Below are positions 10,363 through 63,900 of a DNA stretch of 64,000 nucleotides, in pieces. Position 1 is the first letter of the stretch. Every line of letters starts with the position of its first letter. Source of the stretch: Escherichia coli. GTDB lineage: Bacteria > Pseudomonadota > Gammaproteobacteria > Enterobacterales > Enterobacteriaceae. The stretch is from the NCBI RefSeq assembly GCF_030384885.1, contig NZ_CP128613.1. One strand, written 5' to 3'. Both the position numbers and the translations under genes were made by a program. The notes below the pieces were generated by a model. It worked only from the letters and a program-made list of their open reading frames with translations. It did no database searches and was not told the DNA's origin.

Positions 10363-10383
10363 AGCATATTCCTGTATCAGTGG

Positions 10384-14286: not shown

Positions 14287-14530
14287 AAGGTCTTACTCCT
14301 GTCGTAATTAATTGTTCAGCCGCCGTGCCGTAAAAATATCTCCTTGTTTAACCATAGACGGCGGCTTGCAGGCACACCTTCGCCCCTGAGAAAATTTAAT
14401 CAGGTTGTGAGCTACCGCGCATTATGCCGTCTGTGAGATTATCTTCTGGAGTATAGACAAGGGGTTAGGAAATATGACTGCTATTCGAAATTCATATTAC
14501 CCAACCTAAGAGGAATTAAATTAAACGCTA

Positions 14531-15937
14531 TTACAGCCGTTCTTGAATAAGTTTGCCTAATTGTTTAACCGCCTGTTCTTCGCGCTCGCCCCACTGCCAT
14601 GCAGTATTAAAACGAAAAAAACGTGACCAGTTTGCACCGGTAGAAAACATTTTACCCGGCGCAATACTGATATGATGCGTCAGTGCTGCCAGGCTTAATT
14701 CGCCCGCATCTAACGGCGCGGGGAGTTCCAGCCAGAGAAAATAACCGCTGTCATTATGATGAATTTTCACTTCCGCAGGCAGATAACGCAGCAGTGCCTG
14801 CCAGGCACGTTGTTTACGTTCCGCAAGCTGGCGACGCAGGCGACGAAGATGGGCGTCGTATCGGCGCGTGGAAAGATAATCCACCAGCGCAAGCTGCATC
14901 GGTGAACTGGTCGAAAGCGTACTCATCAATTGCAAGCGTTGAATTTTACGTGCATGTTTTCCGGCGGCGACCCAACCAATACGAAAACCTGGCACCAGAC
15001 ATTTCGAAAACGAAGAGCAATGCAAAACGCCATCGTGGCGATCCCACGCTTTCGCAGGCAGCGGTTTTTCCCGTCCAAAATAAAGTTCGCTGTACACGTC
15101 ATCTTCAATCAGCGTTACGTTGTACTGATTGAGCAACGCTACCAGTTGTTCTTTTTTCTGCTGCGTTAAGGTAAAACCGAGTGGATTCTGGCTATTAGTC
15201 ATCAGCCAGCACGCTTTCACCGGATACTCCTGCAACGCCAGTTCCAGCGCCTGAAGATCGATCCCTTCGTTAACGTCCGTCGCCACCGATAACGCCTTCA
15301 GCCGTAACCGCTCCAGCGCCTGCAACGCGCCGTAGAAACAAGGATTCTCTACTATCACCCAATCGCCTGGTTCCGTTACCGCTTGTAAACTGAGGTTTAA
15401 TGCCTCTAACGCCCCGGCGGTAATGACAATTTCATCAGGAGAAATAGTGATGCCCTGTAAGGCATAGCGACGAGCAATAGCCTGACGCAGTTCTGCGTTT
15501 CCTGGCGGTAAGTTTTCAATCACGCTCATCGCCGTGGCGGTTTTGCTTACCTGCGCCAGCGAGCGGTTTAGTTGTTGGAGGGGGAAAAGTCGCGGGTCGG
15601 GAAAGGCCGAGGCAAACGGAACTACCGACGGATCGCGACTGGCCTGCAACATATCAAAAATATAGGTGTTGATATCGACTGCTTCATCTCGAGTGACTGG
15701 AATGACTGGCGCTTTCGGCATTTTTATTGCCTGTGGCGCAACGTAATAACCCGACTGCGGTCGCGCGATAATATGTCCCTGACTTTCGAGCAACTGATAG
15801 GCATGGCTGACGGTCATAAAGCTCATGCCAGAAAGCGCCACCTGGTCACGCAACGAAGGCAAACGATCTCCGGGTTGCCAGATCCCCGACGCAATCTGCT
15901 CGCGTAATTGTTCTGCAAGCTGCTGGTATTTTTTCAT
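14531..15937 (-). CDS. ydcR: MocR-family regulator YdcR (GntR HTH fused to aminotransferase-like PLP domain)
   Basis: 468-aa ORF with an N-terminal GntR-type HTH and a class-I aminotransferase-like C-terminal domain. Confidence 0.85.
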   Translation of the reverse strand: MKKYQQLAEQLREQIASGIWQPGDRLPSLRDQVALSGMSFMTVSHAYQLLESQGHIIARPQSGYYVAPQAIKMPKAPVIPVTRDEAVDINTYIFDMLQASRDPSVVPFASAFPDPRLFPLQQLNRSLAQVSKTATAMSVIENLPPGNAELRQAIARRYALQGITISPDEIVITAGALEALNLSLQAVTEPGDWVIVENPCFYGALQALERLRLKALSVATDVNEGIDLQALELALQEYPVKACWLMTNSQNPLGFTLTQQKKEQLVALLNQYNVTLIEDDVYSELYFGREKPLPAKAWDRHDGVLHCSSFSKCLVPGFRIGWVAAGKHARKIQRLQLMSTLSTSSPMQLALVDYLSTRRYDAHLRRLRRQLAERKQRAWQALLRYLPAEVKIHHNDSGYFLWLELPAPLDAGELSLAALTHHISIAPGKMFSTGANWSRFFRFNTAWQWGEREEQAVKQLGKLIQERL

Positions 15938-16015
15938 TATCGAATCGTTATTATGTGCAGGTGATTCGGCAGTCTATATCAGTTGTTAAAAATGACAACT
16001 TTTCATTAACTGTTA

Positions 16016-16255
<240 letters not shown>

Positions 16256-16430
16256 TTACCTCCGTGTGTAATGTGCTCGAAAATAGCACTAAATCGCCGC
16301 AACGGCAGAATGCAATGCAAAATCAGGAAGGAAGATTCCAGAATTTCTTTGCGCTAATTTGCAAAACTGAATAATAACCTCAAGAAACGATCGGCATCAT
16401 AGCGGCAAAAGGTCAGAAAAAGGTGGCGAG

Positions 16431-16661
16431 ATGTTTTCGAAGGCGTTATCGGTTGTCTTATTAACGTGTGCACTGTTCTCAGGACAACTCATGGCAGGGC
16501 ACAAAGGACATGAATTTATGTGGGTAAAGAATGTGGATCATCAGCTGCGTCATGAAGCGGACAGCGATGAATTGCGTGCTGTGGCGGAAGAGTCGGCGGA
16601 AGGTTTGCGCGAGCATTTTTACTGGCAAAAATCGCGCAAACCAGAAGCGGGACAGCGTTGA
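16431..16661 (+). CDS. yncJ: Small secreted protein YncJ (DUF2554)
   Basis: 76-aa ORF with signal peptide (MFSKALSVVLLTCALFSGQLMA); length and position match YncJ. Confidence 0.85.
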   Translation: MFSKALSVVLLTCALFSGQLMAGHKGHEFMWVKNVDHQLRHEADSDELRAVAEESAEGLREHFYWQKSRKPEAGQR

Positions 16662-16669
16662 GTCATTTG

Positions 16670-16705
16670 TTGCCGGATGCGGCATAACGCCTTACCCGGC
16701 CGACA
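16670..16705. repeat. REP (repetitive extragenic palindromic) element
   Basis: tgccggatgcggcataacgccttacccggcc closely matches the E. coli REP consensus GCCGGATGCGGCGTAAACGCCTTATCCGGC; lies between convergent yncJ and ydcP. Confidence 0.75.
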
Positions 16706-16752
16706 AGATCATGCAGATTCAATAAGTTGTGAGTAACCAGAAAACTGGCGTT

Positions 16753-18714
16753 TTACCCTTTTCGCTTCGGCAATGTTTTCAGCAGCTCATCCGGACTAAC
16801 GGATGCCACTACGCTTCCCGGTAACGGCATTTTCAGTATGTGATTTTTGATTTTGCCAATGACGTGCATCTCACATGGGCGACAATCGAACTTTAGCGTT
16901 AATACTTCATCGCCATTAACCAGTTGCATTGGCGTCGCCTTCCAGCTTTTGATGTTACCTTTTGCCTGTTTCGGACACAGATTGAAGGCAAAGCGCAGAC
17001 AATGCTTGGTGATCATTACCGGCACTTCCCCCTTCTCTTCATGCGCTTCATACGCCGCATCAATCAGTTGCACACCATAGCGATGATAAAATTCACGCGC
17101 TTTGTGGTTGTAAACGTTCGCGAGGAAACTCAAATGCGTTTGCGGATAAACCGGCGCAGGGTCAGCAACCGGTTTACGACTGCCGCGCTGATAACTGGCA
17201 AGACGCGCAGCATCCAGCATTTCGGCGGCCTCACGGCGGAACTGATTTAACAGACTGTTCGGTACAAACAGCGCACCAGGCAAATTAATTTGCACATCGC
17301 GGGCGTAATAGAGGGTTTGCCCCAGCTTAGCCAGACCATCTTTCAGGTTATTAAGCGCTTTTTCGGCGTTATTAGCTTCGTCGAATTGTCCATCCAGCGT
17401 ATGCGTGACGCTGACGCCCTCTTCACTGGTCAGGGTCAGAATCAGTTGTTCCTGCCAGCCGCCCAGTTCAATGTCTACCGCTACGCGACGTTCGCTGGAT
17501 GTTTTGGTCAACGCCTGCTGCCAGTTATGGTCCAGATTACGATTAAGCGGATGATGCGGACGAATTTTATGCAAATCCGCAGGCATCTCATTTGGCCAGA
17601 CGCGGTACTGATTTTGCCCGGTTTTTTCGACTGTATTGGCGCGAAAGCCAACCACTTCACGTTTAATCATCACATTCAGACCATCGCCATTTGCTAACGG
17701 CTCGGTGACGGCAACATCGAGATGATCCTTCGCCACTTTTAATACTTCACCGACCGGCAGGCCGATAAACTTGGGGGAGTCGAACGCGCCGATATCCCCT
17801 TTACGGGCGTTAACAAAGTAGTCGGTACTGCCACGATGGAAGGTTTTTTCCGTCGACGGTACGAAGAAATGCTCGGTACGACCGGATGAAGCACGCGCCA
17901 GATCGCCACGTTCATCAATAATGGCGTCCAGCATTTGGCGATAATGCGCGGTGATATTCTTCACGTAGCTCATATCTTTGTAACGCCCTTCAATCTTGAA
18001 GGAGCGCACGCCAGCATCAATCAGCGCGCCAAGGTTAGCAGTCTGATCGTTATCTTTCATCGACAGCAGATGTTTTTCATAGGAAACCACCCGCCCCTGA
18101 TCGTCTTTCAATGTGTATGGCAAACGGCATGCCTGCGAGCAATCGCCACGGTTGGCGCTACGCCCTGTTTGCGCATGAGAAATGTAGCACTGACCAGAAT
18201 AGGCCACGCACAATGCACCATGAATAAAGAATTCAATGGTCGCGTCCGTGGCCTGGTGAATCGCGCGGATCTGCTCAAGATTCAGCTCTCGCGCCAGCAC
18301 AATCTGCGTAAAGCCAACATCAGAGAGGAACTTCGCTTTTTCTACTGTGCGAATATCGCACTGCGTACTGGCGTGCAGTTCAATCGGCGGAATATCAAGT
18401 TCCAGAATCCCCATATCCTGAACAATCAGCGCATCGACGCCGGTCTGGTAGAGGTCGGTAATCAGCCGTTGCGCAGGGTCCAGCTCATCATCATGCAAAA
18501 TGGTGTTAAGCGTGACGAAAATTTTTGCACCATAACGATGGGCAAACGGCACCAGTTCGGCAATATCTTTCAGGCTATTACTGGCATTATGACGGGCACC
18601 AAAACCAGGGCCGCCGATATAAACAGCATCGGCACCGTGCAAAATAGCTTCGCGGGCAATGGCGGCATCGCGTGCCGGGCTTAACAGTTCAAGTCGATGA
18701 GAAGATACGGTCAC
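16753..18714 (-). CDS. ydcP: Peptidase U32-family protein YdcP (RlhA, 23S rRNA 5-hydroxycytidine synthase)
   Basis: ORF 16753-18756; U32 collagenase-like sequence. GTG at 18712-18714 gives the remembered 653 aa; the first ATG would give 667 aa. Confidence 0.85.
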   Translation of the reverse strand: MTVSSHRLELLSPARDAAIAREAILHGADAVYIGGPGFGARHNASNSLKDIAELVPFAHRYGAKIFVTLNTILHDDELDPAQRLITDLYQTGVDALIVQDMGILELDIPPIELHASTQCDIRTVEKAKFLSDVGFTQIVLARELNLEQIRAIHQATDATIEFFIHGALCVAYSGQCYISHAQTGRSANRGDCSQACRLPYTLKDDQGRVVSYEKHLLSMKDNDQTANLGALIDAGVRSFKIEGRYKDMSYVKNITAHYRQMLDAIIDERGDLARASSGRTEHFFVPSTEKTFHRGSTDYFVNARKGDIGAFDSPKFIGLPVGEVLKVAKDHLDVAVTEPLANGDGLNVMIKREVVGFRANTVEKTGQNQYRVWPNEMPADLHKIRPHHPLNRNLDHNWQQALTKTSSERRVAVDIELGGWQEQLILTLTSEEGVSVTHTLDGQFDEANNAEKALNNLKDGLAKLGQTLYYARDVQINLPGALFVPNSLLNQFRREAAEMLDAARLASYQRGSRKPVADPAPVYPQTHLSFLANVYNHKAREFYHRYGVQLIDAAYEAHEEKGEVPVMITKHCLRFAFNLCPKQAKGNIKSWKATPMQLVNGDEVLTLKFDCRPCEMHVIGKIKNHILKMPLPGSVVASVSPDELLKTLPKRKG

Positions 18715-18786
18715 ATTCTTATCCAGTAGCTGAAAAATGGCGGCTATTTTAGCCACAAGCGCGACGTTGCGAAATAGTTTTCCCGC

Positions 18787-19323
18787 TTAACTGCGTGGGT
18801 AATGGATGAGGGAATGAAAATGTACGATTTGCTCCCCACCATTACGATAGACATGCGTAACGTCTGCAGCAAATCGAGCGCCTTTTCCACAATTAAGGCT
18901 CTGCCATTCACCATCAACGCACAGATCAAGTTGCCCATCAATGACGACAACATGTTCGATTACTCCCTTCTCATGGGGCGTCGATTCACTTATTGCACCG
19001 GGAGCCATCTGAATTGAGAAGTGTTCAAAGCAGAGTTGCGGATCATAAGGAAACAGCGAAGTGATCACCATCGCCTGCTGTTGCGGATCATAAACTGAAG
19101 GCGTAGCGGACTGCGGCGGAGAAATAAATGTCGAAAATGGCACATTCAACCCGGTGGCAATTTTCCATAATGTCGCGACCGTCGGGCTGGACTCATTACG
19201 TTCAATCTGCCCTAACATCGCTTTAGAAACCCCCGTCGCTTCTGCCAGTCGCGAAAGACTCCAGCCGCGCTGCTGACGTAGTTGTTTAAGTGTGGTGGAT
19301 AAAAAGCGAGTGAGATTTTCCAT
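18787..19323 (-). CDS. sutR: XRE-family HTH plus cupin regulator SutR (YdcN)
   Basis: 178-aa ORF with N-terminal HTH (LSRLAEATGVSKAMLGQIERNESSPT) and C-terminal cupin domain. Confidence 0.88.
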   Translation of the reverse strand: MENLTRFLSTTLKQLRQQRGWSLSRLAEATGVSKAMLGQIERNESSPTVATLWKIATGLNVPFSTFISPPQSATPSVYDPQQQAMVITSLFPYDPQLCFEHFSIQMAPGAISESTPHEKGVIEHVVVIDGQLDLCVDGEWQSLNCGKGARFAADVTHVYRNGGEQIVHFHSLIHYPRS

Positions 19324-19414
19324 GTGACTCCTCCGGCAAAGCGGAAGTTTATCACTTGTGCGTTATAACGGACAAATGCTACGGTACCTGTACGCTATAA
19401 CGCACGAGGTGACC

Positions 19415-20587
19415 ATGCGTCTGTTTTCTATTCCTCCACCCACGCTACTGGCGGGGTTTCTGGCGGTATTAATTGGCTACGCCAGTTCAGCGGCAATAAT
19501 CTGGCAAGCAGCGATTGTCGCCGGAGCCACCACTGCACAAATCTCTGGCTGGATGACGGCGCTGGGGCTGGCAATGGGCGTCAGTACGCTGGCTCTGACA
19601 TTATGGTATCGCGTACCTGTTCTCACTGCATGGTCAACGCCGGGCGCAGCTTTGCTGGTTACCGGATTGCAGGGACTGACACTTAACCAAGCCATCGGTG
19701 TTTTTATTGTCACCAACGCGTTAATAGTCCTCTGTGGTGTGACGGGATTATTCGCCCGTTTGATGCGTATTATTCCGCACTCGCTGGCAGCGGCGATGCT
19801 GGCCGGAATTTTGTTACGCTTTGGTTTACAGGCGTTTGCAAGTCTGGATGGTCAGTTTACGTTATGCGGTAGTATGTTGCTGGCGTGGCTGGCGACAAAA
19901 ACTTTTGCGCCGCGTTATGCGGTAATTGCGGCGATGATAGTTGGCATCGTAATCGTTATTTTACAAGGTGACGTTGTCACAGGGGATATTGCCTTTAAAC
20001 CCGTTCTCCCCGCTTATATTGCCCCTGAATTTTCGTTTGCTCACAGTCTGAGCGTTGCACTCCCCCTTTTTCTGGTGACGATGGCATCGCAAAACGCACC
20101 GGGTATTGCGGCAATGAAAGCGGCCGGGTATTCGGCTCCTGTTTCGCCGTTGATTGTATTTACTGGATTGCTGGCGCTGGTATTTTCCCCTTTCGGGGTT
20201 TATTCCGTCGGTATTGCTGCAATCACCGCAGCTATTTGTCAAAGCCCGGAAGCGCATCCGGATAAAGATCAACGTTGGCTGGCAGCTGCCGTTGCAGGCA
20301 TTTTTTATTTGCTCGCAGGTCTTTTTGGTAGTGCTATTACCGGGATGATGGCTGCCCTGCCCGTAAGTTGGATCCAGATGCTGGCAGGTCTGGCGCTGTT
20401 AAGTACCATTGGCGGCAGTTTGTATCAGGCGCTGCATAATGAGCGTGAGCGAGACGCGGCGGTGGTGGCATTTCTGGTAACGGCAAGTGGATTGACGCTG
20501 GTCGGGATTGGTTCTGCGTTCTGGGGATTAATTGCCGGAGGCGTTTGTTACGTGGTGTTGAATTTAATCGCTGACAGAAACCGATAA
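19415..20587 (+). CDS. ydcO: BenE-family inner membrane transporter YdcO
   Basis: ORF 19358-20587; start at MRLFSIPPPT (ATG 19415) gives ~390 aa; highly hydrophobic polytopic protein. Confidence 0.85.
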   Translation: MRLFSIPPPTLLAGFLAVLIGYASSAAIIWQAAIVAGATTAQISGWMTALGLAMGVSTLALTLWYRVPVLTAWSTPGAALLVTGLQGLTLNQAIGVFIVTNALIVLCGVTGLFARLMRIIPHSLAAAMLAGILLRFGLQAFASLDGQFTLCGSMLLAWLATKTFAPRYAVIAAMIVGIVIVILQGDVVTGDIAFKPVLPAYIAPEFSFAHSLSVALPLFLVTMASQNAPGIAAMKAAGYSAPVSPLIVFTGLLALVFSPFGVYSVGIAAITAAICQSPEAHPDKDQRWLAAAVAGIFYLLAGLFGSAITGMMAALPVSWIQMLAGLALLSTIGGSLYQALHNERERDAAVVAFLVTASGLTLVGIGSAFWGLIAGGVCYVVLNLIADRNR

Positions 20588-48326: not shown

Positions 48327-49187
48327 TTATTCTCGCGAAATACCGTCCAACGTAGACAACACGTCCGCAGAAAGATGCAATTTTTCTGCGGCCATATTCT
48401 CCCGTAAATGAGCAACAGAAGACGTTCCTGGGATCAGCAAAATATTCGGTGAACGTTGTAACAGCCACGCCAGCGCCACCTGCATTGGTGTTGCACCCAG
48501 GCTCGCAGCAACATCGGAAAGCGTGGAGGATTGCAGCGGCGTAAAGCCCCCGAGCGGAAAGAACGGCACGTAGGCAATGCCGTCACGAGCCAAAGCATCA
48601 ATCATTGCGTCATCAGCACGATGAGCAATGTTGTATTCGTTCTGCACACAGACGATTTCGGTAATCTTACGCGCCTCTGCAACCTGCGTCGTTGTTACAT
48701 TGCTCAGGCCAATATGTTTTACCAGGCCTTGTTGTTGCATCTCTGCCAGCACGGTCAGGCTGGCTTCAATCGATCCTTCCGCTGGGCCATGACCATCCCC
48801 CATCATAACGCGCAGGTTAACCACATCCAGTACGTCCAGCCCGAGATTACGTAGATTATCGTGCACCGCTTTTTGCAGCTCTGCCGGAGAAAATGCGGGC
48901 AACCAGGATGCGTTCTCTCCACGCCGCGCACCAATTTTAGTGACAATTGTCAGATCGTCAGAGTAAGGATAAAGCGCTTCGCGGATAATCTGATTGGTGA
49001 CGTGCGGACCATAAAAGTCACTGGTATCAATGTGATTGACGCCCAATGCTAGCGCCTCGCGCAGAACGGTTATAGCGACGTGGCGATCTCTGGGCGGGCC
49101 GAAAACCCCAGGACCTGCCAGTTGCATCGCGCCATAACCAAGACGGTTAACGGATTTTGTACCGAGAGTAAATGTGTTGCTGCTCAT
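48327..49187 (-). CDS. ydbC: Aldo/keto reductase YdbC
   Basis: 286-aa ORF with AKR-family motifs. Confidence 0.88.
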   Translation of the reverse strand: MSSNTFTLGTKSVNRLGYGAMQLAGPGVFGPPRDRHVAITVLREALALGVNHIDTSDFYGPHVTNQIIREALYPYSDDLTIVTKIGARRGENASWLPAFSPAELQKAVHDNLRNLGLDVLDVVNLRVMMGDGHGPAEGSIEASLTVLAEMQQQGLVKHIGLSNVTTTQVAEARKITEIVCVQNEYNIAHRADDAMIDALARDGIAYVPFFPLGGFTPLQSSTLSDVAASLGATPMQVALAWLLQRSPNILLIPGTSSVAHLRENMAAEKLHLSADVLSTLDGISRE

Positions 49188-49394: not shown

Positions 49395-52300
49395 TTAGAA
49401 CGTTTTCTTGAAGTTCAGCATCACACCTTTATCGCTGATACCATCCTCTTTCCAGTGGTAAGCATCCAGATTCAGCGAGCTCTCTTTGCTGCTGTACTTC
49501 ACGCCGACGCTTGCCAGGCTGTTGATACCGCCGCCCTTTTGCCCATCATCGACATTAAAGTGCTGGCTGCCTGCGCCTGCCAGGCTTGCCGTGCGCTGGC
49601 TCTTCGTGTAGCTCAGGTTTGGCCCACCTTCCAGCGTGGCGTTCGCACTCCAGCCGTCTTTGCCTGCGTAGTCCAGCTTCAGCCCAACGATGCTGTCCAC
49701 CGCCGTTTCGCTGCCGCTGTTCATACTCAGGTTAAAGTCTCCGGCATTACGCTCCTGATAACCGCCTTCCAGCGTGTGACGCAGTTTCACACTCGCATAT
49801 GGCGTGATTTTCAGCCCTTCGCGCGGTTCAAAGGTTTTCGCCCCTTCGCTGCGGAACTCCAGGTACTGCTGTTTCACATTCGTGTCTGCCGTCTTACTGA
49901 TGTCGCCGTAAGCCACCGAACGGCTGCTGTCCAGTTGGTGGATATCGTAACGCAGCGCGTTATTCCAGCTCATACCGTTGTCAAAGGACATCTGATGCTT
50001 CAGGCCAAAGAACTGGCTGTAGCCGCCTGTAACACCGTTATCACCCGCTTTCTGCGCACCGTCGCCGTCCAGACGGGCGATACCGTACTCCAGGCTCATG
50101 GTCTGGTTTTCGCTCAGGTCGAGGGTTTTGCGCAGCGCCAGCATGTCGTACTCGGTATTATTCCCCAGCTCTGCACGCGGATCGCCTTTCGCCACCACGT
50201 TAAATGCCAGACCGTTGCCCATCTTCGGTGCGGCGTCTGCCAGCATACTAAAGCGATTGCTTAACACACGCGCTTCGCGGAATACCGTGGTCGCCTGGCT
50301 ACCGCTAATTTGCTTAAGTGCGCTGTTCAGCTCTGCAGTGGTGCCGACGTTCAGACTGGTATACAGCTCATTGTTGGTGTAACCCGCATCCAGCGCTTTT
50401 GCCACGTCATTCACTGAGGCATCCGTCGCCACATCGGTGTAGGCTTTTTTGCTCATGGTCACGTCAACGTTGCCGCTGGCGTCGGTACTGCCTGTCGCCT
50501 GCCAGACAACAGATGTCGAAGTGATCGCTTGCGCATCGGTCAGGTTGCTGCCTTGCACCACATCATCAAAGCTGACGGTTTTGTCCACCGTTCCCGCCGC
50601 AAAAGCGGTGTTGATCTCCACGCCATTCATACTGGCGTTATTGACCATCAGCTTACCGGCGCTACCGTCGGCGTTCGTCCCCACCACGTAACCATTGAGG
50701 TTGTTCATGCCATCGTTGCGGCTAACGGAAGAAGAATGGCTGCCGTCGTATGGCGTAATGGTGGGTTCTTCCGGCGCGGTAAAGTCGACATAGTGTACTT
50801 CCGTACCGTCTCCCCCTTCGCCACTGCCCTCTATCGGCGTGCCAGATTGTTTAATCAATCCGGAACCATTCACGTTGTCGTCAATATAAACAGTGCCGTT
50901 GTTAACAATATGACCATTGCTCCCGAGCTTGCTGAAGGCGAAGGAGTTATTGGCGTAGATATTAATCGTACCGTTGTTTTCAACCACACCATCCGCTTTG
51001 GCGTCCGATGCTAATTGCATCCCAATCATGCCTGTTTGTGTCGTGCCTTCGCTGCCGACATTGATGGTGCCATTGTTAACCATTTTTGCGCTGCCGTGCG
51101 CATTCATGGCGATGGTATTATTTTTATCAATATTGATAGTGCCATCGTTAATTGCCCGGCTACCGGCGTTATTATTTGACGTCGTAACCTGGCCGTTAAT
51201 CACACCTGTCGTACCGTTATACAATGTATGCCCATTACCGCCGGTAGCGATATCAGCATCCCCATTCACTGTACCCCAGTTGTTGAAATGCCCAGCCCAA
51301 AGTCCGTTATCAAGAAGATCGACAACACCACCGTCCAGGTTATTGAAGGTCGCGTTTTTATCAACCGAACCACTATGAACCGTTCCTGCGTTATTGAATG
51401 TGGCTGCGGCAGAAAAATTCACTTTATTGACCGTTCCACCCGCTTCGTTATTCATCACGGCAGAAGCAGAGGCTCCCTTCCATGCTGTTACCGTCCCGGC
51501 GTTATAAAACGTACTGGCCCATTGTTCAACAGTGTTGATAGTGCCGGAGTTGTTGATAACAGAACCCGCAACGGTTGTACCTACTTGCCCGGTCACTACA
51601 CCTTCGTTAGTAAACACGCCGCCATCCACAGAAACGGTTTTTGTCGTGCCCTGGTTGGTGTATTCCCCACCCGTTGCAATATCAACCTCGTTTATACTGC
51701 CCGTGGTTTCATTGACCAGATGACCAAAGTCAGCCACGGTGACAGGCCCTCCGGTTACGGTACCCGCGTTGGTTACCAGGGTTTCAGCGGTCGCTATCAT
51801 ATCAGTAGAACCACCGGATGAAGACAGGTTAAGCGTCTCCCCCTCGGCCGTAATGATATCGCCGTTTCTCCAGCTTAATGAAACGAACCCATCAGTCGGG
51901 TTATAGGCGTTACTGTCCTGGCATATACCAAAAGTACAGATGGTTCCGTAATTAACGATAGTCCCGCTGCCATCGTTATAGAATGCCTGCCCGTTTTCAG
52001 CATTGATATTGATGATGCCCGTCTGGTCATTAACTGCGGTACCGCCACTATAAACTGCCATACCAACGAGTTTATTCGCCCCCAGGCTGCCATCAAAGTT
52101 CTCATTCTTCTCGAGGTTGATGGTACCCTGATTAACCACCGTATTATCGGTACCGTATGCTGCCATCCCAGCACCTGCATTATAGATAGTGATAGTACCT
52201 GACTGCTGGTTAAGCGCGGTAGCATTTTGCCTTGCGCCACCATAACTGTCCGTTCCTACCGCCATGCCGACACCATAATTTTTTGCATTGCTGCTGCCGA

Positions 52301-54932
52301 TATCGTTGCGTAAGGTGGTGGTATCGTTTTCATCTACCCAGATCGTATCCAGGGTAATCTGGCCTGCATTTGTTACAGTCGAATGATTAATCGCCAGCAT
52401 ACCGACATTACCCCGGCCATACATATCAATAACGCCATTCGCACCATTTAGCGCTGAACCATTATCCTGAGCAGTCATGCCCGTCATACTAACAACGCCA
52501 CTATTAAAAACCGTGGGATCGCTCAATGACAAAGCATTGAACATATTCAAAACGCTATACTGTTCCATCACTTTAGCCGTAATGGTACCGTTATTCACCG
52601 CCGTCCCACCTTCGGAGCTAAAGAAGGCTTTATTACCGGATTCCGGCGATACATCAATTGCGGATGAGTAATCATATTGCTCAAGTAAAACATTACCGTT
52701 ATTCGTTGCAACGGAACCCGTACCCGATATATTGGTAAACCCCATATTCCAGAGCTCAACAAACCCGTTATTGATAACTTGTGACCCTGAACTGACGCTA
52801 AGTATTTCTGATGGGTTATTGCCATAATGCGCGTAAACGTCAATATCCTTCATACTGAAGGTCGCATCCTCCGTGATTTCAAGAAAAGCATTATTGCTTA
52901 CCTGAATAATATTTGCATAGCCCAGCGGAAATTGACCGCTGACTGAGGAGTCTCCTCCCAGATAAACCGACGAATGACCATCAACCTTAATGAGCGGAAT
53001 ATCACCATAGCCCGTACGACTTGCGGCTGGGACTGAACCATCCGTCATAGCCGATGCTTCACCGAAAAGTTGAATACCCCCCCGTAAGGTAACGCTATTT
53101 TCATCCCCTGAAATCACCAACCCACTGATGTTTTCTTGGCTACCATTGACAGTACTATAGGTGTGATGCGCAAGTTCGCTATCAACCTTCAATGTTAACT
53201 GACCATCCAGCGTCAGGTCATTATTGTTACCCGAAACACGAATACCTACGGAAGAATCGAAAAAGTGTTCTGCTGCATTATCAGTCGTCTGATCTTTATC
53301 CACCATAATATTACCGGTAATTTCAACTTCATTGCCATCACCGGCCACATTTACCCCTGTAGCAACACTGCCAGTCACATTAAGCTCATTCGTTGCCAGC
53401 GTCATGGTGTTATTATTTCCAGACACATCCAGACCGGTTGAATAATCCCCAACATCCATACGGCCAGCCAGAGAAATTTCGCCCCCATCTCCAACAACGC
53501 GAATCCCGGTACTGGCATTTCTGGCAGTGATATCCCCCACATTGATAAGAGTAGAATGATTACCCTCAATCAGAATCCCTGTCGCATTGGCCTCTGAACT
53601 ACCATTACTGACGGAAATATCCCCCCTGTTAATGAACGTCGACGCATCACCACTGAGAGAAACACCCAGCGAATTTTCATCCACGACCGTTATATTGCCT
53701 TTGTTGCTGACGATCGCGCCATTACCCTCAACATCAATACCCCGAGCAGCATTGCTAACGTATAAATCCCCTTCCTGTATAACCGTCGCATTATTACCAA
53801 CGATTTTGCTGCCCGTTGAATTTTGCCCATCAACCGTCATATGTCCTTTATTATCGGTCCTGACATCATTACCGATAATAAGGGCCCCTGTTCCACCATT
53901 ATTGACGGTGGAGTCGCCAGTGTTATTTAAGATTGTACGATCGCCATTAACGATAACCGCCGTGCCAGCATCGACCACCGTCTGACCGTTATTATTAATG
54001 GTTATATTATCGCCGGTCAGGATACCGACCACCGAATCTTCACCGACAGCCTCTGTTTTACCCTCGTTTGTCAGCGCAATGTTGTCACCATTAATCATCA
54101 TCACTGTACCGCCATTCAGGGCCGTGTTGCCGCCCTGGTCAGTGATAATTGCATCATTAACGGTAATTATTCTGCCCGTTGTTCCATCAGACACGACGCT
54201 GGCTAACTGTGTGACGTGGAGTTTACCTTCGTCATCATAGCGCCATTCCGTATCACCAGTGGTACTCACTCCACTAAAGATGGCGGTATGAGTCTCTTCA
54301 TGGTTTTCCCACTCAGTCACAATGGTTTTTCGGCCATCTTTTGCCGTCAGCGTGTAGCTACCATCTTCATTTTGGGTATAAGTGAACGTCGCCCCGCGAA
54401 TCTTCAAGGTTTGCGCGTCCTTGTCCCATGTCACATTGTTTTCAAAGACAACGGGTTCTGTTCTCGGGGGGTCAACATCATCATCGCTATTGTCGGGTGG
54501 AGTAACATCACCGCCTTTATCTGGGGGGGTAACATCATCGGCGTTATCTGGCTTTACAGGTATATCTGAATCTTCATCACTGGGAAGGGGTGGCGGTAGA
54601 GAGCCATTATCATCTGGCGGTATGGGCTGGGAAAAAGAAGAGTGAGCAGAATGATCATTGTCATGAGACAATTCAATCACTGCGAGTGTTGCCAGTACCG
54701 CCGTGGCACCTAATGCCAGTAACGAGCTGAAACCATTATTTGTAACAACAGCACATTTTTCTGGCACTGTTTTCAACTTCATTGACGGTCGGGCGTGCCC
54801 TTCTGACTGACATGTCATTTGAGAGCTTCTGCGCATACTGTCTGCACTCTCGCCTTCTGTTATTTCCGCCCCCCAGCTTTGGCCACTTAACGCTATAGCG
54901 ATACACGCTGATAATAACGTTTTCTTTTGCAT
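49395..54932 (-). CDS. ydbA: Autotransporter YdbA, uninterrupted 1845-aa reading frame (beta-helical passenger plus C-terminal beta-barrel translocator)
   Basis: Signal peptide; Pro/Asp-rich N-terminal repeats; long Gly/Asn/Thr-rich degenerate repeats typical of beta-helix passengers; C-terminus ends ...MLNFKKTF (terminal aromatic) as in autotransporter barrels. One continuous ORF, no IS sequences inside. Confidence 0.85.
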   Translation of the reverse strand: MQKKTLLSACIAIALSGQSWGAEITEGESADSMRRSSQMTCQSEGHARPSMKLKTVPEKCAVVTNNGFSSLLALGATAVLATLAVIELSHDNDHSAHSSFSQPIPPDDNGSLPPPLPSDEDSDIPVKPDNADDVTPPDKGGDVTPPDNSDDDVDPPRTEPVVFENNVTWDKDAQTLKIRGATFTYTQNEDGSYTLTAKDGRKTIVTEWENHEETHTAIFSGVSTTGDTEWRYDDEGKLHVTQLASVVSDGTTGRIITVNDAIITDQGGNTALNGGTVMMINGDNIALTNEGKTEAVGEDSVVGILTGDNITINNNGQTVVDAGTAVIVNGDRTILNNTGDSTVNNGGTGALIIGNDVRTDNKGHMTVDGQNSTGSKIVGNNATVIQEGDLYVSNAARGIDVEGNGAIVSNKGNITVVDENSLGVSLSGDASTFINRGDISVSNGSSEANATGILIEGNHSTLINVGDITARNASTGIRVVGDGGEISLAGRMDVGDYSTGLDVSGNNNTMTLATNELNVTGSVATGVNVAGDGNEVEITGNIMVDKDQTTDNAAEHFFDSSVGIRVSGNNNDLTLDGQLTLKVDSELAHHTYSTVNGSQENISGLVISGDENSVTLRGGIQLFGEASAMTDGSVPAASRTGYGDIPLIKVDGHSSVYLGGDSSVSGQFPLGYANIIQVSNNAFLEITEDATFSMKDIDVYAHYGNNPSEILSVSSGSQVINNGFVELWNMGFTNISGTGSVATNNGNVLLEQYDYSSAIDVSPESGNKAFFSSEGGTAVNNGTITAKVMEQYSVLNMFNALSLSDPTVFNSGVVSMTGMTAQDNGSALNGANGVIDMYGRGNVGMLAINHSTVTNAGQITLDTIWVDENDTTTLRNDIGSSNAKNYGVGMAVGTDSYGGARQNATALNQQSGTITIYNAGAGMAAYGTDNTVVNQGTINLEKNENFDGSLGANKLVGMAVYSGGTAVNDQTGIININAENGQAFYNDGSGTIVNYGTICTFGICQDSNAYNPTDGFVSLSWRNGDIITAEGETLNLSSSGGSTDMIATAETLVTNAGTVTGGPVTVADFGHLVNETTGSINEVDIATGGEYTNQGTTKTVSVDGGVFTNEGVVTGQVGTTVAGSVINNSGTINTVEQWASTFYNAGTVTAWKGASASAVMNNEAGGTVNKVNFSAAATFNNAGTVHSGSVDKNATFNNLDGGVVDLLDNGLWAGHFNNWGTVNGDADIATGGNGHTLYNGTTGVINGQVTTSNNNAGSRAINDGTINIDKNNTIAMNAHGSAKMVNNGTINVGSEGTTQTGMIGMQLASDAKADGVVENNGTINIYANNSFAFSKLGSNGHIVNNGTVYIDDNVNGSGLIKQSGTPIEGSGEGGDGTEVHYVDFTAPEEPTITPYDGSHSSSVSRNDGMNNLNGYVVGTNADGSAGKLMVNNASMNGVEINTAFAAGTVDKTVSFDDVVQGSNLTDAQAITSTSVVWQATGSTDASGNVDVTMSKKAYTDVATDASVNDVAKALDAGYTNNELYTSLNVGTTAELNSALKQISGSQATTVFREARVLSNRFSMLADAAPKMGNGLAFNVVAKGDPRAELGNNTEYDMLALRKTLDLSENQTMSLEYGIARLDGDGAQKAGDNGVTGGYSQFFGLKHQMSFDNGMSWNNALRYDIHQLDSSRSVAYGDISKTADTNVKQQYLEFRSEGAKTFEPREGLKITPYASVKLRHTLEGGYQERNAGDFNLSMNSGSETAVDSIVGLKLDYAGKDGWSANATLEGGPNLSYTKSQRTASLAGAGSQHFNVDDGQKGGGINSLASVGVKYSSKESSLNLDAYHWKEDGISDKGVMLNFKKTF

Positions 54933-55578
54933 GAGAAATCCTTTTCAATGAATGACATTTCAAATAATAAAATATGAGTAACAGATAAGAAATAGCCACA
55001 GGCTGTGTCATGATTTAATGTCTGCTCTTGAAATTTTATTTAGCAATCCCAGAACATTCAACTTAATTAGTATTTCGAAACCTCAATGCAGACACATAAA
55101 AAACAAATTATTCGATTACTTAGGCTATTTGTTGCATTAATACACATCCTCTAACAATAATCAGACAAAAAGCAATGTCAGCGTCAAATTGGGTAGCTGA
55201 TTCATATTACTGATCACTCCGTAAATTCATTCATCGTGAAAATATTAACATTTAAACCATGTTCCATTTAATCAACCCACTGAAAATCTGGAGGTTATCT
55301 ACTGCGGTTTGTTGTTGACTGCCCCTGATAGGATTACCAGGCGTTGACAGAAGATGAGGCTTGCAAGATGCTAAAAACAATGTGGTGTTACAAGCAATCC
55401 CATAAACCTCGTAACTTCACTTAAATGAGCGATGCCGTCCATATTTGGGTTGACTATAAAAATCCTTAATATTGAGGTTGATGATGATATTCATGATGGC
55501 GTTGGAAAAATAGGACACCCATAAAATATCTATACAGCCTTTAAATTAAATCATTGAAATATCGCTGTTGCATAGTGC

Positions 55579-55905
55579 TTATTTTTGCAACCATTTTCCG
55601 TTAATTCCCTGCACATATTCCCCCGGTTTGGCCCGAGCTACAAGCTTTTGTCCGGCAAGCTTCGCGATATCATCTACCGATACATTATTTTGCTTTGCCA
55701 GTTGTTGATAACTCACTTTACGTGCGGCATTAATCTCGGTTACTAATTTCTCTGTTTCAGCATCCGTTTTCAACGCAACCAAATAACCATAAAATGTTTC
55801 ACCTACCCGCCCCTGAGTTCTGGCTTCATCCAGAGTCAATGCCATTACATTGCTGCTTACCAGCCCAACAAGAAACGCACAAAGAAGTAATGTTTTCTTC
55901 ATCAT
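55579..55905 (-). CDS. ydbL: YdbL (DUF1318) periplasmic protein
   Basis: ORF 55579-55983; start at MKKTLLLCAFLVGLVSSNVMA gives 108 aa with signal peptide. Confidence 0.82.
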   Translation of the reverse strand: MMKKTLLLCAFLVGLVSSNVMALTLDEARTQGRVGETFYGYLVALKTDAETEKLVTEINAARKVSYQQLAKQNNVSVDDIAKLAGQKLVARAKPGEYVQGINGKWLQK

Positions 55906-55909
55906 CGCC

Positions 55910-56095
55910 TCAGAAAAGATCGCTACGAGTTTCAAGCAGCTCTTCGACATCTTTGTCTGCCTTGATGATGATCTCATGCTCAATTTTAACGTTCATATTG
56001 ATAGTGATCGGTTCCTTAGGTGCAGCGACTTCAATGCGAGGCGTACAGCCAACCAGCATAAAAGATGACGTCAACGCAGCCAGTAAAATTTTCAT
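55910..56095 (-). CDS. ynbE: Small lipoprotein YnbE
   Basis: 61-aa ORF with lipobox (MLVGCT); overlaps the ydbH stop by 4 nt. Confidence 0.82.
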   Translation of the reverse strand: MKILLAALTSSFMLVGCTPRIEVAAPKEPITINMNVKIEHEIIIKADKDVEELLETRSDLF

Positions 56096-58731
56096 TGTTT
56101 TTCCTCACACCTTTTTCCTTGCGGACAGCCATTTTCCGGCAGACGCGCGTTCTGCTCCAACCATGCCTGGAGATTATCGCCAAAGCGTAAACTGCGCCAC
56201 AGGGTAAAAATATTCTCTTCATGATGGTAATTAAGGTTTACCGTACCACTTTTACCGTCGACGCGACTGGTACCTGTAATATTGGCCTGCATGGTTAACA
56301 CACCGAGATTATCTAAATTAATTTTTGTCGATGAACGGCTAATTTCCATATAGCGCAACCAGTTAATCGCAGAACCCGCGGTCATATTGTCTTTCACCAC
56401 CGCATCTGCGGTGTCTTTATCCAGCCGCAAGGTCATTGGTCCGCTATTTGCCAGCCAGCCGTCTTTAACTATCCATTTTTCATTGTTCAGCCATAAAGGC
56501 AATGCCCCACTAAATGCCCCGGACATGGCGAATTGTTTCGGATTGACGGCGCTAACCAGTTCGCTGGATGAGAGATTATTCAGCCGCAACAGCGCCGGGT
56601 CATGTTGCGGCATGCGTAATTGTTTCATCAGCACGTTACCGCCTAACACATCGACGCTAACATCGGTCAACAACAATGGTTCGTCTTCACTCCACGGATA
56701 ACGCCCTTGCAAATCAGCCGTAATATTTTTCGCTGTCACAAGATTAATCACTTCGGCAATTCGCAACGTAACGGGGCCGCGAGTCCCCAGATGCCAGGCT
56801 CCATCGGCAAAACGGAAAGGCAGGACAAAATCGACACCGTTAACCTGATTATCTGGCATCCAGGCACTACCGCCTTTCAACACACCGTGCCCTCCCGCGC
56901 GGAATCCTTGTTCAGGCGCAGCAGAAAATGCGACCTGGGCATACAGTTCGCCATCGCGTAAGTTCATCTTCCAGTCGGGTGGCACCAGCGGCTGGAATAC
57001 GGTCAGTGATTGTTTAGGCCACCAGGCGTTACCGCGCAGACGAATACCGTCCCAGCGACCATTTACCCGAACCGGGCCAATCTCACCAGCATGTAAATCG
57101 CCTTTAAAGAGGAAATACGTCGGATCGCGTCCATCGACGCTAAATTTTAAGGTTGATGGCGGTAACACACTGCCACCCGTGAACAGCGTTTGCCCGGCGT
57201 CCAGTGACAGCGCGCCGCTAAAGGAGGGATGCTGTGCGTCACGTACCCAGACGACGGGCTTGTCGAGAATTAATCGCGGCTTTTCTACCGTCATCGTACC
57301 GTATTGTAACTGGTCGAAACCGGTTGAGAGATCGGTCAGCGTAATCGTGCTGTCATGCCACTCACCTTTTCCTGCGACATCCCAGGTGGCATTCATCGGT
57401 GTAAAACTCCCTTTTCCCCAGTAGCGCCACTGCCAGCGGCCAGCGTCAGGGAGAAAATCATTCGCCAGCCCATCCATATGCAGTACGAAATCGCCCAGTT
57501 CATTTTCATGCGCCTGCAAAATGGCCTGCAAACGCCCGTCAACACCACGTTGGGTGACTTTTACACCCGCTAAAGGCCAGCGGATTTCATCGATGTCCAG
57601 CGAATCGATGACTCTTCCCTTCGAACGTAATAACGCGCCTGGCTCAAAGGCCAGCGTTGGGTCAGTCAGACTTCCGCTTAGCTGCGCAGGTAAACGGGCA
57701 TATAAAATGAGGTCCGCCTGTTTCGCTTCACCGGTCAGTTGCAAAGGCAGCTGGCTGTTATCCATACTTAATTTTCCTGGGCCAAAATTTAGCACCGCGT
57801 TGCCCTTACCCGCTTGCCCCTGGGTCAGCACACTCAGTCGTCCGCTGACCAGAGCGTTCTCAAGCCCTGCCTGCCAGTTGTCGACTTTGACACCCAGTCG
57901 TCCACTCAAAGGAAAACCTGCATACGGCCAGCTCCAGCGACCATCGCTTACGGTCAATTGTTGGCGAGTAATTTGCCACGGCAGATCGAGCAACGGATCG
58001 CCGTTATCCCGTGCCAGCACAATCAATTGCCCGCTATTTTCCTGCCAGTCCAGCTCGGCATCCACCAGTGAAGGCTCCTGCGGCAAGTTTAACGTCGCAG
58101 TAGCATGACCACTTACAGGAAGTCCATCCGGCACTAGCGGCATAGTAAATTCCCCCACCAGTTTAACTGGCGGCTGATTTTCAAACGCGACGACATCCAG
58201 TTCGCTGACTGTAAGTTGTTGCCCTTTCAGCTGGCCTTGAAATTTAACTTTTTCGCCCTGATAACGCAGTTGCTGGATATCGGAGTTTAATGCGAGAGAG
58301 AGTTTTCCCTGCCATTCCTGCCAGGGAGAAAAAATCAGTTTATCGATATTGATCCAGGTGTTAGGCAACATGGCCTGCCACTGCGCGAGGGTTTTTGGAG
58401 CGGCTGGCGATTGCTCCGTCTGCGGCAATTTCGCCAGACAAGCAGAGTCAAGTTCTACCGTGCCGACGTTCAATAACCAGCGGCTGGGATGAGAAAGGCT
58501 GGCGTTTGTGATATGTGCAAGCTGACAATCGCCCACCAGATAACGGAGATCGGGAATGATTAAACCTTTACGCGTAATGCGTGGGCTTTCATCTAATGCA
58601 ATACGTGTCCCGAGCGGTAGCCAGATGCCCGCCAGCGTGGGAACCCACAAGCCGAGCGTCATCAGCAGCGTCAACGGCACAAGAATAATCAGTAATAACA
58701 GCGCGAGAACGGCTTTATATTTACCCAGCAT
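56092..58731 (-). CDS. ydbH: AsmA/TamB-like envelope protein YdbH
   Basis: 879-aa ORF with N-terminal membrane anchor (MLGKYKAVLALLLLIILVPLTLLMTLGLW); AsmA-like family by established knowledge. Confidence 0.88.
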   Translation of the reverse strand: MLGKYKAVLALLLLIILVPLTLLMTLGLWVPTLAGIWLPLGTRIALDESPRITRKGLIIPDLRYLVGDCQLAHITNASLSHPSRWLLNVGTVELDSACLAKLPQTEQSPAAPKTLAQWQAMLPNTWINIDKLIFSPWQEWQGKLSLALNSDIQQLRYQGEKVKFQGQLKGQQLTVSELDVVAFENQPPVKLVGEFTMPLVPDGLPVSGHATATLNLPQEPSLVDAELDWQENSGQLIVLARDNGDPLLDLPWQITRQQLTVSDGRWSWPYAGFPLSGRLGVKVDNWQAGLENALVSGRLSVLTQGQAGKGNAVLNFGPGKLSMDNSQLPLQLTGEAKQADLILYARLPAQLSGSLTDPTLAFEPGALLRSKGRVIDSLDIDEIRWPLAGVKVTQRGVDGRLQAILQAHENELGDFVLHMDGLANDFLPDAGRWQWRYWGKGSFTPMNATWDVAGKGEWHDSTITLTDLSTGFDQLQYGTMTVEKPRLILDKPVVWVRDAQHPSFSGALSLDAGQTLFTGGSVLPPSTLKFSVDGRDPTYFLFKGDLHAGEIGPVRVNGRWDGIRLRGNAWWPKQSLTVFQPLVPPDWKMNLRDGELYAQVAFSAAPEQGFRAGGHGVLKGGSAWMPDNQVNGVDFVLPFRFADGAWHLGTRGPVTLRIAEVINLVTAKNITADLQGRYPWSEDEPLLLTDVSVDVLGGNVLMKQLRMPQHDPALLRLNNLSSSELVSAVNPKQFAMSGAFSGALPLWLNNEKWIVKDGWLANSGPMTLRLDKDTADAVVKDNMTAGSAINWLRYMEISRSSTKINLDNLGVLTMQANITGTSRVDGKSGTVNLNYHHEENIFTLWRSLRFGDNLQAWLEQNARLPENGCPQGKRCEEKQ

Positions 58732-60997: not shown

Positions 60998-63900
60998 ATG
61001 ATTACTATTGACGGTAATGGCGCGGTTGCTTCGGTGGCGTTTCGCACCAGTGAAGTTATCGCCATCTACCCTATTACCCCCAGTTCCACGATGGCAGAAC
61101 AGGCTGATGCATGGGCCGGAAACGGCTTGAAAAACGTTTGGGGAGACACACCACGCGTGGTTGAAATGCAGTCGGAAGCGGGTGCTATCGCTACCGTGCA
61201 TGGTGCTTTGCAAACTGGCGCCCTCTCAACATCGTTTACGTCATCGCAGGGTTTGCTGCTGATGATCCCAACGCTGTACAAACTGGCAGGCGAACTGACG
61301 CCGTTTGTCCTGCATGTTGCGGCTCGTACCGTTGCCACACATGCACTCTCTATTTTTGGCGATCATTCCGACGTCATGGCAGTGCGCCAGACGGGTTGCG
61401 CGATGTTGTGTGCAGCAAACGTCCAGGAGGCGCAAGACTTTGCTCTCATTTCGCACATTGCGACGCTGAAAAGTCGCGTGCCATTTATTCATTTCTTTGA
61501 TGGTTTCCGCACGTCCCACGAGATCAATAAAATTGTCCCGCTGGCCGATGACACTATTCTTGAACTGATGCCGCAGGCAGAAATTGATGCTCATCGCGCC
61601 CGTGCACTCAACCCGGAACATCCGGTGATCCGCGGTACGTCCGCCAATCCTGACACTTATTTCCAGTCTCGCGAAGCCACCAACCCATGGTACAACGCAG
61701 TCTATGACCATGTTGAACAGGCGATGAATGATTTCGCTGCCGCGACAGGTCGCCATTATCAGCCCTTTGAGTATTACGGGCATCCACAAGCGGAACGGGT
61801 GATTATCCTGATGGGCTCTGCCATCGGCACCTGTGAAGAAGTGGTTGATGAATTGCTGACCCGAGGCGAAAAAGTGGGCGTGCTAAAAGTTCGTCTGTAC
61901 CGCCCCTTCTCCGCCAAACACTTGCTACAAGCTCTGCCGGGATCCGTACGCAGCGTGGCGGTAGTGGACAGAACCAAAGAACCGGGTGCCCAGGCAGAAC
62001 CGCTCTATCTGGATGTGATGACCACACTGGCTGAAGCCTTTAATAATGGCGAGCGCGAAACCCTGCCCCGTGTCATCGGCGGGCGCTATGGTCTTTCATC
62101 CAAAGAATTTGGCCCGGACTGTGTTCTGGCAGTATTTGCCGAACTCACTGCAGCTAAACCGAAAGCGCGCTTTACGGTTGGTATTTACGATGATGTGACC
62201 AATCTGTCACTGCCGTTGCCGGAAAACACCCTGCCAAACTCGGCGAAACTGGAAGCCTTGTTTTATGGTCTTGGTAGTGATGGCAGCGTTTCCGCGACCA
62301 AAAACAATATCAAGATTATCGGTAATTCCACGCCGTGGTACGCACAGGGCTATTTTGTTTACGACTCCAAAAAGGCGGGCGGCCTGACGGTTTCTCACCT
62401 TCGCGTGAGCGAACAGCCGATTCGTTCCGCTTATCTCATTTCCCAGGCTGATTTTGTTGGCTGCCACCAGTTGCAGTTTATCGATAAATATCAGATGGCT
62501 GAACGTTTAAAACCTGGCGGCATTTTCCTGCTCAACACGCCGTACAGCGCAGATGAAGTATGGTCGCGCTTGCCGCAGGAAGTTCAGGCCGTGTTAAACC
62601 AGAAAAAAGCGCGCTTCTATGTGATTAACGCGGCGAAAATCGCCCGTGAATGTGGCCTGGCGGCCCGTATTAATACCGTCATGCAGATGGCTTTTTTCCA
62701 TCTGACGCAAATTCTGCCTGGCGACAGCGCCCTGGCCGAATTGCAGGGCGCGATTGCCAAAAGCTACAGCAGCAAAGGCCAGGATCTGGTGGAACGCAAC
62801 TGGCAGGCTCTGGCACTGGCGCGTGAATCCGTAGAAGAAGTTCCGCTACAGCCGGTTAATCCGCACAGCGCCAATCGACCGCCTGTGGTTTCCGATGCTG
62901 CTCCTGATTTCGTGAAAACCGTTACCGCTGCGATGCTCGCCGGACTTGGCGATGCTCTCCCCGTTTCGGCGCTGCCGCCAGACGGCACCTGGCCGATGGG
63001 TACCACACGCTGGGAAAAACGCAATATTGCCGAAGAGATCCCCATCTGGAAAGAGGAACTCTGTACTCAATGTAACCACTGCGTCGCCGCTTGCCCACAC
63101 TCAGCTATTCGCGCCAAAGTGGTGCCGCCTGAAGCAATGGAAAATGCCCCTGCCAGCCTGCATTCGCTGGATGTAAAATCGCGTGATATGCGCGGGCAGA
63201 AATATGTCTTGCAGGTAGCTCCGGAAGATTGCACCGGCTGTAACCTGTGCGTCGAAGTTTGCCCGGCGAAAGACCGTCAGGATCCAGAGATCAAAGCTAT
63301 CAATATGATGTCACGTCTGGAACATGTAGAAGAAGAGAAAATCAATTACGACTTCTTCCTAAATTTACCAGAAATCGATCGCAGCAAACTGGAACGTATT
63401 GATATTCGTACATCGCAACTGATTACACCGCTGTTTGAATATTCAGGTGCTTGCTCTGGTTGTGGCGAGACGCCGTATATTAAATTGCTGACTCAGCTCT
63501 ATGGCGATCGGATGTTGATCGCTAACGCTACGGGTTGTTCTTCAATTTATGGTGGTAACCTGCCCTCCACACCATATACCACCGATGCCAACGGTCGTGG
63601 ACCGGCATGGGCGAACTCGCTGTTTGAAGATAACGCCGAATTTGGCCTTGGTTTCCGCCTGACGGTCGATCAACACCGTGTCCGCGTGCTGCGTCTGCTG
63701 GATCAATTTGCCGATAAAATCCCGGCTAAATTACTAACTGCGTTGAAATCAGACGCCACGCCAGAGGTTCGTCGTGAACAGGTTGCAGCTTTACGCCAGC
63801 AACTCAACGATGTTGCTGAAGCACATGAACTGCTGCGTGATGCAGATGCACTGGTGGAAAAATCAATCTGGCTGATTGGTGGCGATGGCTGGGCTTACGA

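Follow-up and report, generated by a model that had tools for sequence, protein, structure and literature searches.

Organization of the locus

We analysed a 64-kb stretch of Escherichia coli DNA, hereafter the window, with the focus on the intergenic spacer between ydbA and ydbL. In the RefSeq annotation the genes around this spacer follow in the order ydbD, pdxI (ydbC), ydbA, gap, ydbL, ynbE, ydbH, ldhA, hslJ, ydbJ and nifJ. The gap extends from the start of ydbA (54932, minus strand) to the stop of ydbL (55579) and is exactly 646 bp long (54933-55578). Its GC content is 34.4% versus 49.1% for the whole window, which is within the lowest 1.3% of 646-bp windows. The original prediction, that about 650 bp of AT-rich DNA alone lies between the two genes, is thus borne out. 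The features of the region are the following.

48327-49187, minus strand: pdxI (ydbC), RefSeq annotation; the conserved left-hand core neighbour of ydbA
49395-54932, minus strand: ydbA, 5538 bp, 1845 aa, intact; RefSeq 'autotransporter domain-containing protein', a BigA/YdbA-family adhesin
50513-54932, minus strand: hypervariable 5' (passenger-domain) part of ydbA; one divergent haplotype block together with the spacer
54933-55578, no strand: AT-rich spacer, 646 bp; upstream region of ydbA and downstream region of ydbL, presumed to hold a promoter and 5' UTR
55579-55905, minus strand: ydbL (DUF1318), RefSeq annotation and domain match; right-hand boundary of the divergent block
55910-58731, minus strand: ynbE and ydbH, RefSeq annotation; core genes of the ydbH-ynbE-ydbL operon

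The pdxI region is 93-99% identical to O157 and GPEC859, and the ynbE/ydbH region is present in 5414 of 5426 genomes. The spacer is 100% identical to positions 1152708-1153353 of E. coli 2013C-4282 (NZ_CP027579.1), where RefSeq leaves it without annotation. Across the 21 kb compared, the window differs from NZ_CP027579.1 by five substitutions (52422, 53079, 53767, 54781 and 62668), four of them in the passenger region of ydbA. They may stem from a different version of the assembly, from a sister isolate, or from errors in the consensus of a repetitive gene.

Absence of the fea/tynA/paa cluster

In K-12 MG1655 the ydbL-ydbA interval has the same position on the chromosome and the same flanking core genes, but different contents. 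The order there is ydbL, feaR, feaB, tynA, paaZ, paaABCDEFGHIJK, paaX, paaY and ydbA, the last being a pseudogene. From the ydbL stop to the ydbA start 19,185 bp (19.2 kb) are counted, with 17 catabolic and regulatory genes, versus 646 bp and an intact ydbA in the window. The MG1655 annotation agrees with the K-12 order given in the original prediction, with paa, tynA and feaR/feaB between ydbL and ydbA. The literature source for the feaRB-tynA-paaZABCDEFGHIJKXY locus of K-12 is Ferrandez 1998, as cited in PMC4951805.

With eight island proteins as tblastn queries, no fea, tynA or paa homologue is found across the 64-kb window. The sole matches are paralogous aldehyde dehydrogenases at 33-38% identity, and the spacer itself has zero matches to the eight proteins. 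The claim that the cluster is missing at this locus is therefore confirmed. To look for paa genes elsewhere in the genome, as had been proposed along with that claim, we used a chimeric query composed of 979 bp unique to the window haplotype and 480 bp each of paaA and tynA from K-12. By megablast and blastn, paaA and tynA are not found on the chromosome of 2013C-4282 or on the 16 other spacer-bearing chromosomes. Each of these 17 chromosomes has one place that matches the query, namely the unique part itself. This absence refers to two markers on chromosomes, with sensitivity down to about 65-70% identity; on plasmids, just six places match paaA or tynA in the entire collection. Since both markers are absent from the 17 chromosomes, it is a reasonable inference from sequence that the strain has lost phenylacetate and phenylethylamine catabolism and would not grow on phenylacetate or 2-phenylethylamine.

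The absence of the cluster is a common and already published presence/absence polymorphism. Among 5,426 complete E. coli genomes, 3312 carry paaA and/or tynA and about 39% have neither; island-free arrangements are found in about 2100. The paa locus has been described as a heterogeneity region between the core ydbH-ynbE-ydbL and ynbC/ynbD, with ydbA inside the variable region, and partial tynA-paaZABCDE deletions have been reported as well (PMC4951805). tynA was PCR-negative in 28 of 28 O157:H7 isolates, and CFT073 is without a 33-kb area (PMC4640556). The only new detail is the rare (0.3%) divergent haplotype of ydbA and spacer in this strain. We also note that in strains 2 HS-C, EcPNK006 and M23917 the paaA and tynA marker pieces lie less than 1.8 kb apart versus about 4.5 kb usually, which implies that about 2.7 kb around paaZ has been deleted from within the island in these otherwise island-bearing genomes.

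The divergent ydbA allele

The open reading frame at 49395-54932 is the positional orthologue of ydbA. Its N-terminus, MQKKTLLSACIA (signal peptide), aligns with the YdbA start of K-12 and O157. In Pfam, the beta-barrel domain BigA_N (PF25784) is matched at residues 161-241 (2.8e-26) and the sandwich domain BigA_beta (PF25783) at residues 1414-1497 (5e-24). The NCBIfam model auto_BigA (NF033178) aligns with residues 245-1845 at 991.8 bits, under its 3400-bit cutoff. Hence, YdbA of the window shares BigA_N and BigA_beta with Salmonella BigA, but is a family relative rather than a BigA equivalent. No Pfam autotransporter barrel model is matched at E<=0.001, while the RefSeq name is 'autotransporter domain-containing'. 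Over its last ~450 aa the protein has ~95% identity with its O157 counterpart, which is named 'autotransporter outer membrane beta-barrel domain-containing protein'.

The N-terminal part of the protein is much less conserved. Identity to O157 is 57% over the first ~1000 aa (passenger), and identity to K-12 is 39% over the first 240 aa (passenger N-terminus). At the nucleotide level, identity to other haplotypes is 86-89% at the 3' end of ydbA. Further along the gene, similarity to GPEC859 ends at 50512 and similarity to O157 at 51090, with only patches of 67-70% beyond. The GC content is 47.4% in the 5' part versus 55.5% at the 3' end. The 1.9 kb of ydbA beside the spacer (53000-54932) is confined to the 17 genomes that carry the spacer (17/5426). 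On the other side, similarity to every other haplotype picks up again at the stop codon of ydbL; over the 500 bp next to this stop the identity is 95.8% with K-12, 91.8% with GPEC859 and 78.6% with O157, and about 1 kb on it reaches 97-99%. The spacer and most of the ydbA passenger domain thus belong to one divergent haplotype block of roughly 5 kb (about 50.5-55.6 kb).

Within the 17 carriers, the ydbA passenger (50800-54800) is mosaic: its identity to the window, taken per 400 bp, ranges from 68 to 100%, against 98% or more for the spacer. This suggests intragenic recombination in the adhesin gene. Our literature search on ydbA/BigA returned nothing specific on ydbA allelic diversity.

Several further observations concern the genes around the block. 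In the ydbL-ynbE-5' ydbH stretch (55579-56600), the second 500 bp are 86.6% identical to O157:H7, so that these core genes are unusually divergent; the next-best genome overall reaches just 95.8% over 1 kb. A second locally divergent segment of the window is nifJ/ydbK (61000-63500), parts of which are 92.5-95.8% identical to K-12, O157, GPEC859 and even other spacer carriers. Inactivated copies of ydbA are frequent: IS1 interrupts the gene in TUM1586, IS elements do so in K-12, and O157:H7 WS4202 has it as two CDSs, while the copy in the window is intact. In MINF_1D (1-7620 of its locus) and 10034292-3 (1-6918 of its locus), RefSeq names the giant ydbA autotransporter CDS (about 8-8.6 kb) 'EntS/YbdA MFS transporter', which looks like a YdbA/YbdA annotation mix-up.

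Island-free haplotypes

Sampling of genomes across the range of ydbL identity revealed the other arrangements of the locus. The island-free types are listed with the numbers of genomes that carry them.

10034292-3/SK1144 type: truncated paaY and feaR; K-12 locus 2-1481 joined to 19573-20400; 818 genomes
MINF_1D type: K-12 coordinate 1127 joined to 19932, a clean join with paaY through feaR gone (18.8 kb); 474 genomes
O157 type: 413-bp spacer; 375 genomes
GPEC859 type: 425-bp spacer; 142 genomes
TUM1586/IAI39 type: 457-bp spacer; 42-47 genomes
Window type: 646-bp spacer; 17 genomes

The first two types have a K-12-like ydbA 5' end (88-89% identity). As in the window, the cluster is absent from this locus, but in these two types, and not in the window, the K-12 flanks are joined at definable breakpoints, 1481|19573 and 1127|19932. 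The 10034292-3/SK1144 join contains a 7-bp microhomology, GGATAGC, and is an unambiguous 18.1-kb deletion. The motif lies at 7570-7580 of the 10034292-3 locus and at 1475-1481 and 19567-19573 of the K-12 locus. This points to a single illegitimate-recombination event behind the feaR'/paaY' deletion that later spread to the 818 genomes.

In the O157, GPEC859, TUM1586/IAI39 and window types, both the ydbA 5' end and the spacer are deeply divergent, and island remnants are absent. In the O157:H7 type (e.g. WS4202) ydbL adjoins ydbA across a short AT-rich spacer without fea/tynA/paa genes or their remnants, as in the window, and the C-terminal domain of YdbA is ~95% identical. The two differ in that the 413-bp spacer of WS4202 is unalignable with that of the window, the passenger is 57% identical, identity over the 500 bp beginning at the ydbL stop is 78.6%, and ydbA of WS4202 is in two CDSs (13873-19587 of its locus) instead of being intact; this type is found in 375 genomes versus 17. 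The TUM1586/IAI39 type is island-free like the window and is the sole haplotype with any spacer similarity to it (62% over ~320 bp, ydbA-proximal). It has a shorter spacer, an IS1-interrupted ydbA (812-7543 of the TUM1586 locus) and 42-47 carriers.

Loss or insertion of the island

To find outgroups, species-representative genomes were scanned with YdbL as the seed and the loci then compared by blastn and tblastn, in a set without E. fergusonii, E. marmotae, Salmonella, Citrobacter and Klebsiella. The order and orientation of K-12, ydbL-feaR-feaB-tynA-paaZ-paaA, recur in Silvania hatchlandensis and S. confinis. In Yokenella regensburgei and Enterobacteriaceae bacterium 89 we find ydbL-feaR-feaB, and no downstream tynA, paaZ or paaA match is seen. 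Closer to E. coli, ydbL adjoins pdxI in E. albertii (5300-5523 of its locus) and E. whittamii (10324-11021), with neither ydbA nor paa in between. Since these two species lack it, ydbA itself varies in presence across the genus Escherichia. In Escherichia sp. E1V33, ydbL is followed by about 410 bp and then by a ydbA-like start, and the island is absent. The site in Escherichia sp. MOD1-EC7003 (5362-7390 of its locus) has no ydbA or feaR downstream of ydbL; as read from ORF translations, it contains duplicated transposase-like fragments, as well as a 313-aa signal-peptide ORF of unknown type.

These data bear on whether the island was inserted in K-12-like strains, so that the window would represent the ancestral, never-occupied state. 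The island-free E. albertii, E. whittamii and Escherichia sp. E1V33 speak for such an insertion, as does the scar-free haplotype of the window. However, the order ydbL-feaR-feaB(-tynA-paaZ-paaA) is kept in three other genera, and the island of K-12 has a native GC content, 52.0% versus 51.0% in the flank. The K-12 annotation of the island includes no integrase or transposase, a tRNA scan of the window between 44 and 64 kb returned none, and none of the features that mark the attachment site of a mobile island is seen (a tRNA/att target, direct repeats at the flanks, an integrase when the site is occupied). Nor is the spacer of the window the 'empty site' of K-12: MINF_1D joins the K-12 flanks directly, in a sequence unrelated to this spacer. 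We consider the insertion unlikely. The syntenic outgroups, the native GC without integrase or tRNA, the deletion scars elsewhere and the published heterogeneity of the locus make loss more likely than insertion in K-12, and favour an old linkage of the module to ydbL with repeated loss. An island-free ancestral state of Escherichia is nevertheless conceivable, as the nearest sampled outgroups also lack the island.

The 646-bp spacer

The spacer is carried by 17 of 5426 genomes at 98.3-100% identity and without indels. No fragment of it occurs elsewhere in E. coli, even by blastn against the 5,426 genomes, and the plasmid collection gives no blastn match. In a word-7 blastn against all fetched loci a single match appears, to the ydbA-proximal spacer of TUM1586: over its positions 1-316 the spacer shows weak similarity (62%) to the sequence upstream of ydbA in the TUM1586/IAI39 type. 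From its position, the spacer would most probably carry the promoter and 5' UTR of ydbA and the ydbL terminator region, or end of the ydbH-ynbE-ydbL transcript. In the spacer, a promoter scan gave three promoter-like sites versus 3.5 expected, which is the level of chance, and a terminator scan gave no terminator-like site. No counterpart of the 21-aa ORF upstream of ydbA in K-12 is present.

Might the spacer hide a functional element, such as a small RNA, a small protein or a mobile-element remnant, that would account for its extra length? It is 190-270 bp longer than the spacers of other haplotypes (646 bp versus 375-457 bp), and nothing related to its distal half (55249-55578, 37.9% GC) was detected anywhere searched. 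Moreover, it is free of indels in the 17 carriers, among which its identity is 98.3-98.8% versus 94% in the adjacent coding sequence, but the substitutions are so few that there is no power to detect constraint. Against a hidden element, an Rfam scan of 54000-56500 at E<=1 returned nothing above noise, the spacer has no ORF longer than 42 aa, a repeat search for element ends or target duplications gave short chance-level matches only, without terminal inverted or direct repeats beyond chance, and plasmids are unmatched. We regard a hidden element as improbable; the greater length and the distal half without relatives are unexplained but unremarkable. The same Rfam scan listed an archaeal snoRNA match inside ydbA (E=0.39), which is meaningless and was dropped.

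The spacer had also been proposed to mark the insertion or deletion junction of the island, and this part of the original prediction does not hold. In the alignment with K-12, similarity begins exactly at the ydbL stop codon and there is none in the spacer, which is unalignable with the feaR-ydbL and paaY-ydbA intergenic regions of K-12 as well as with the O157 and GPEC859 spacers. Nor is the ydbA 5' end of K-12 matched at the nucleotide level. tblastn with FeaR and PaaY at E up to 10 gives zero matches in 54933-55578. Both K-12 flanks can be recognized around the breakpoint in the MINF_1D and 10034292-3 types, but not in the window, where the left boundary of the divergent segment lies instead about 4.4 kb inside ydbA.

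A recent simple deletion of a K-12-like 19-kb island, with its junction inside the 646 bp, is largely refuted by these results and in our view very improbable. It would account for the missing cluster and the adjacency of ydbL and ydbA, and such events did happen in other E. coli lineages. However, besides the spacer and the lack of feaR/paaY remnants, the adjoining 4.4 kb of ydbA is not K-12-like either (39% amino-acid identity). The same spacer is found in 17 genomes, and because their flanks differ mosaically by 1-7% from the window, this is no recent event in one clone. Nothing speaks for an assembly artefact, with the cluster collapsed or lost in assembly, and its probability is practically negligible: 17 complete genomes, obtained independently in different laboratories, share the structure, and the about 2100 genomes noted above are island-free as well.

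Proposed origin of the window haplotype

With good confidence, we suggest that the spacer is the intergenic DNA that separates ydbL from an intact, rare and highly divergent ydbA allele on a chromosome without feaRB-tynA-paa. In Escherichia the ydbL-pdxI interval is a multi-allelic variable locus, which may be empty (E. albertii, E. whittamii), contain ydbA alone, or contain ydbA together with the 18.8-kb fea/tynA/paa module. The window has one of at least four deeply diverged island-free haplotypes with ydbA alone. The spacer and about 4.4 kb of passenger coding sequence make up one block, the divergence of which fades gradually into the flanks. Such a pattern would fit old alleles that homologous recombination has reshuffled around the gene of a surface protein, with diversifying selection acting on that protein.

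The haplotype of the window has no surviving scar to indicate that it ever carried the island. The absence of the cluster most probably goes back to an old loss, or to an island-free haplotype that was inherited or imported with the divergent ydbA allele, rather than to a recent deletion or to an insertion in K-12. A stronger version, which we find possible but doubtful, is that the ydbL-pdxI locus is an old multi-allelic one in which divergent YdbA alleles persisted or were introgressed from other Escherichia, that the island-free divergent haplotypes, this one included, are an allele class never found together with the paa module, and that the spacer provides allele-specific regulation. The multi-allelic reading is based on the 39-57% identity of the passengers, the unalignable spacers and the divergence that reaches ydbL, ynbE and ydbH.

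Significance

Beyond the description of the strain, the finding matters little. It predicts that a Shiga-toxin-surveillance isolate would be unable to utilize either phenylacetate or 2-phenylethylamine, a trait already known from O157:H7 and from many extraintestinal strains. As a by-product, a population map of the locus is obtained, with at least seven haplotypes, two of which have definable deletion breakpoints, together with a hypervariable intact YdbA adhesin. This map may be of use, albeit modest, in typing or in studies of adhesin diversification.
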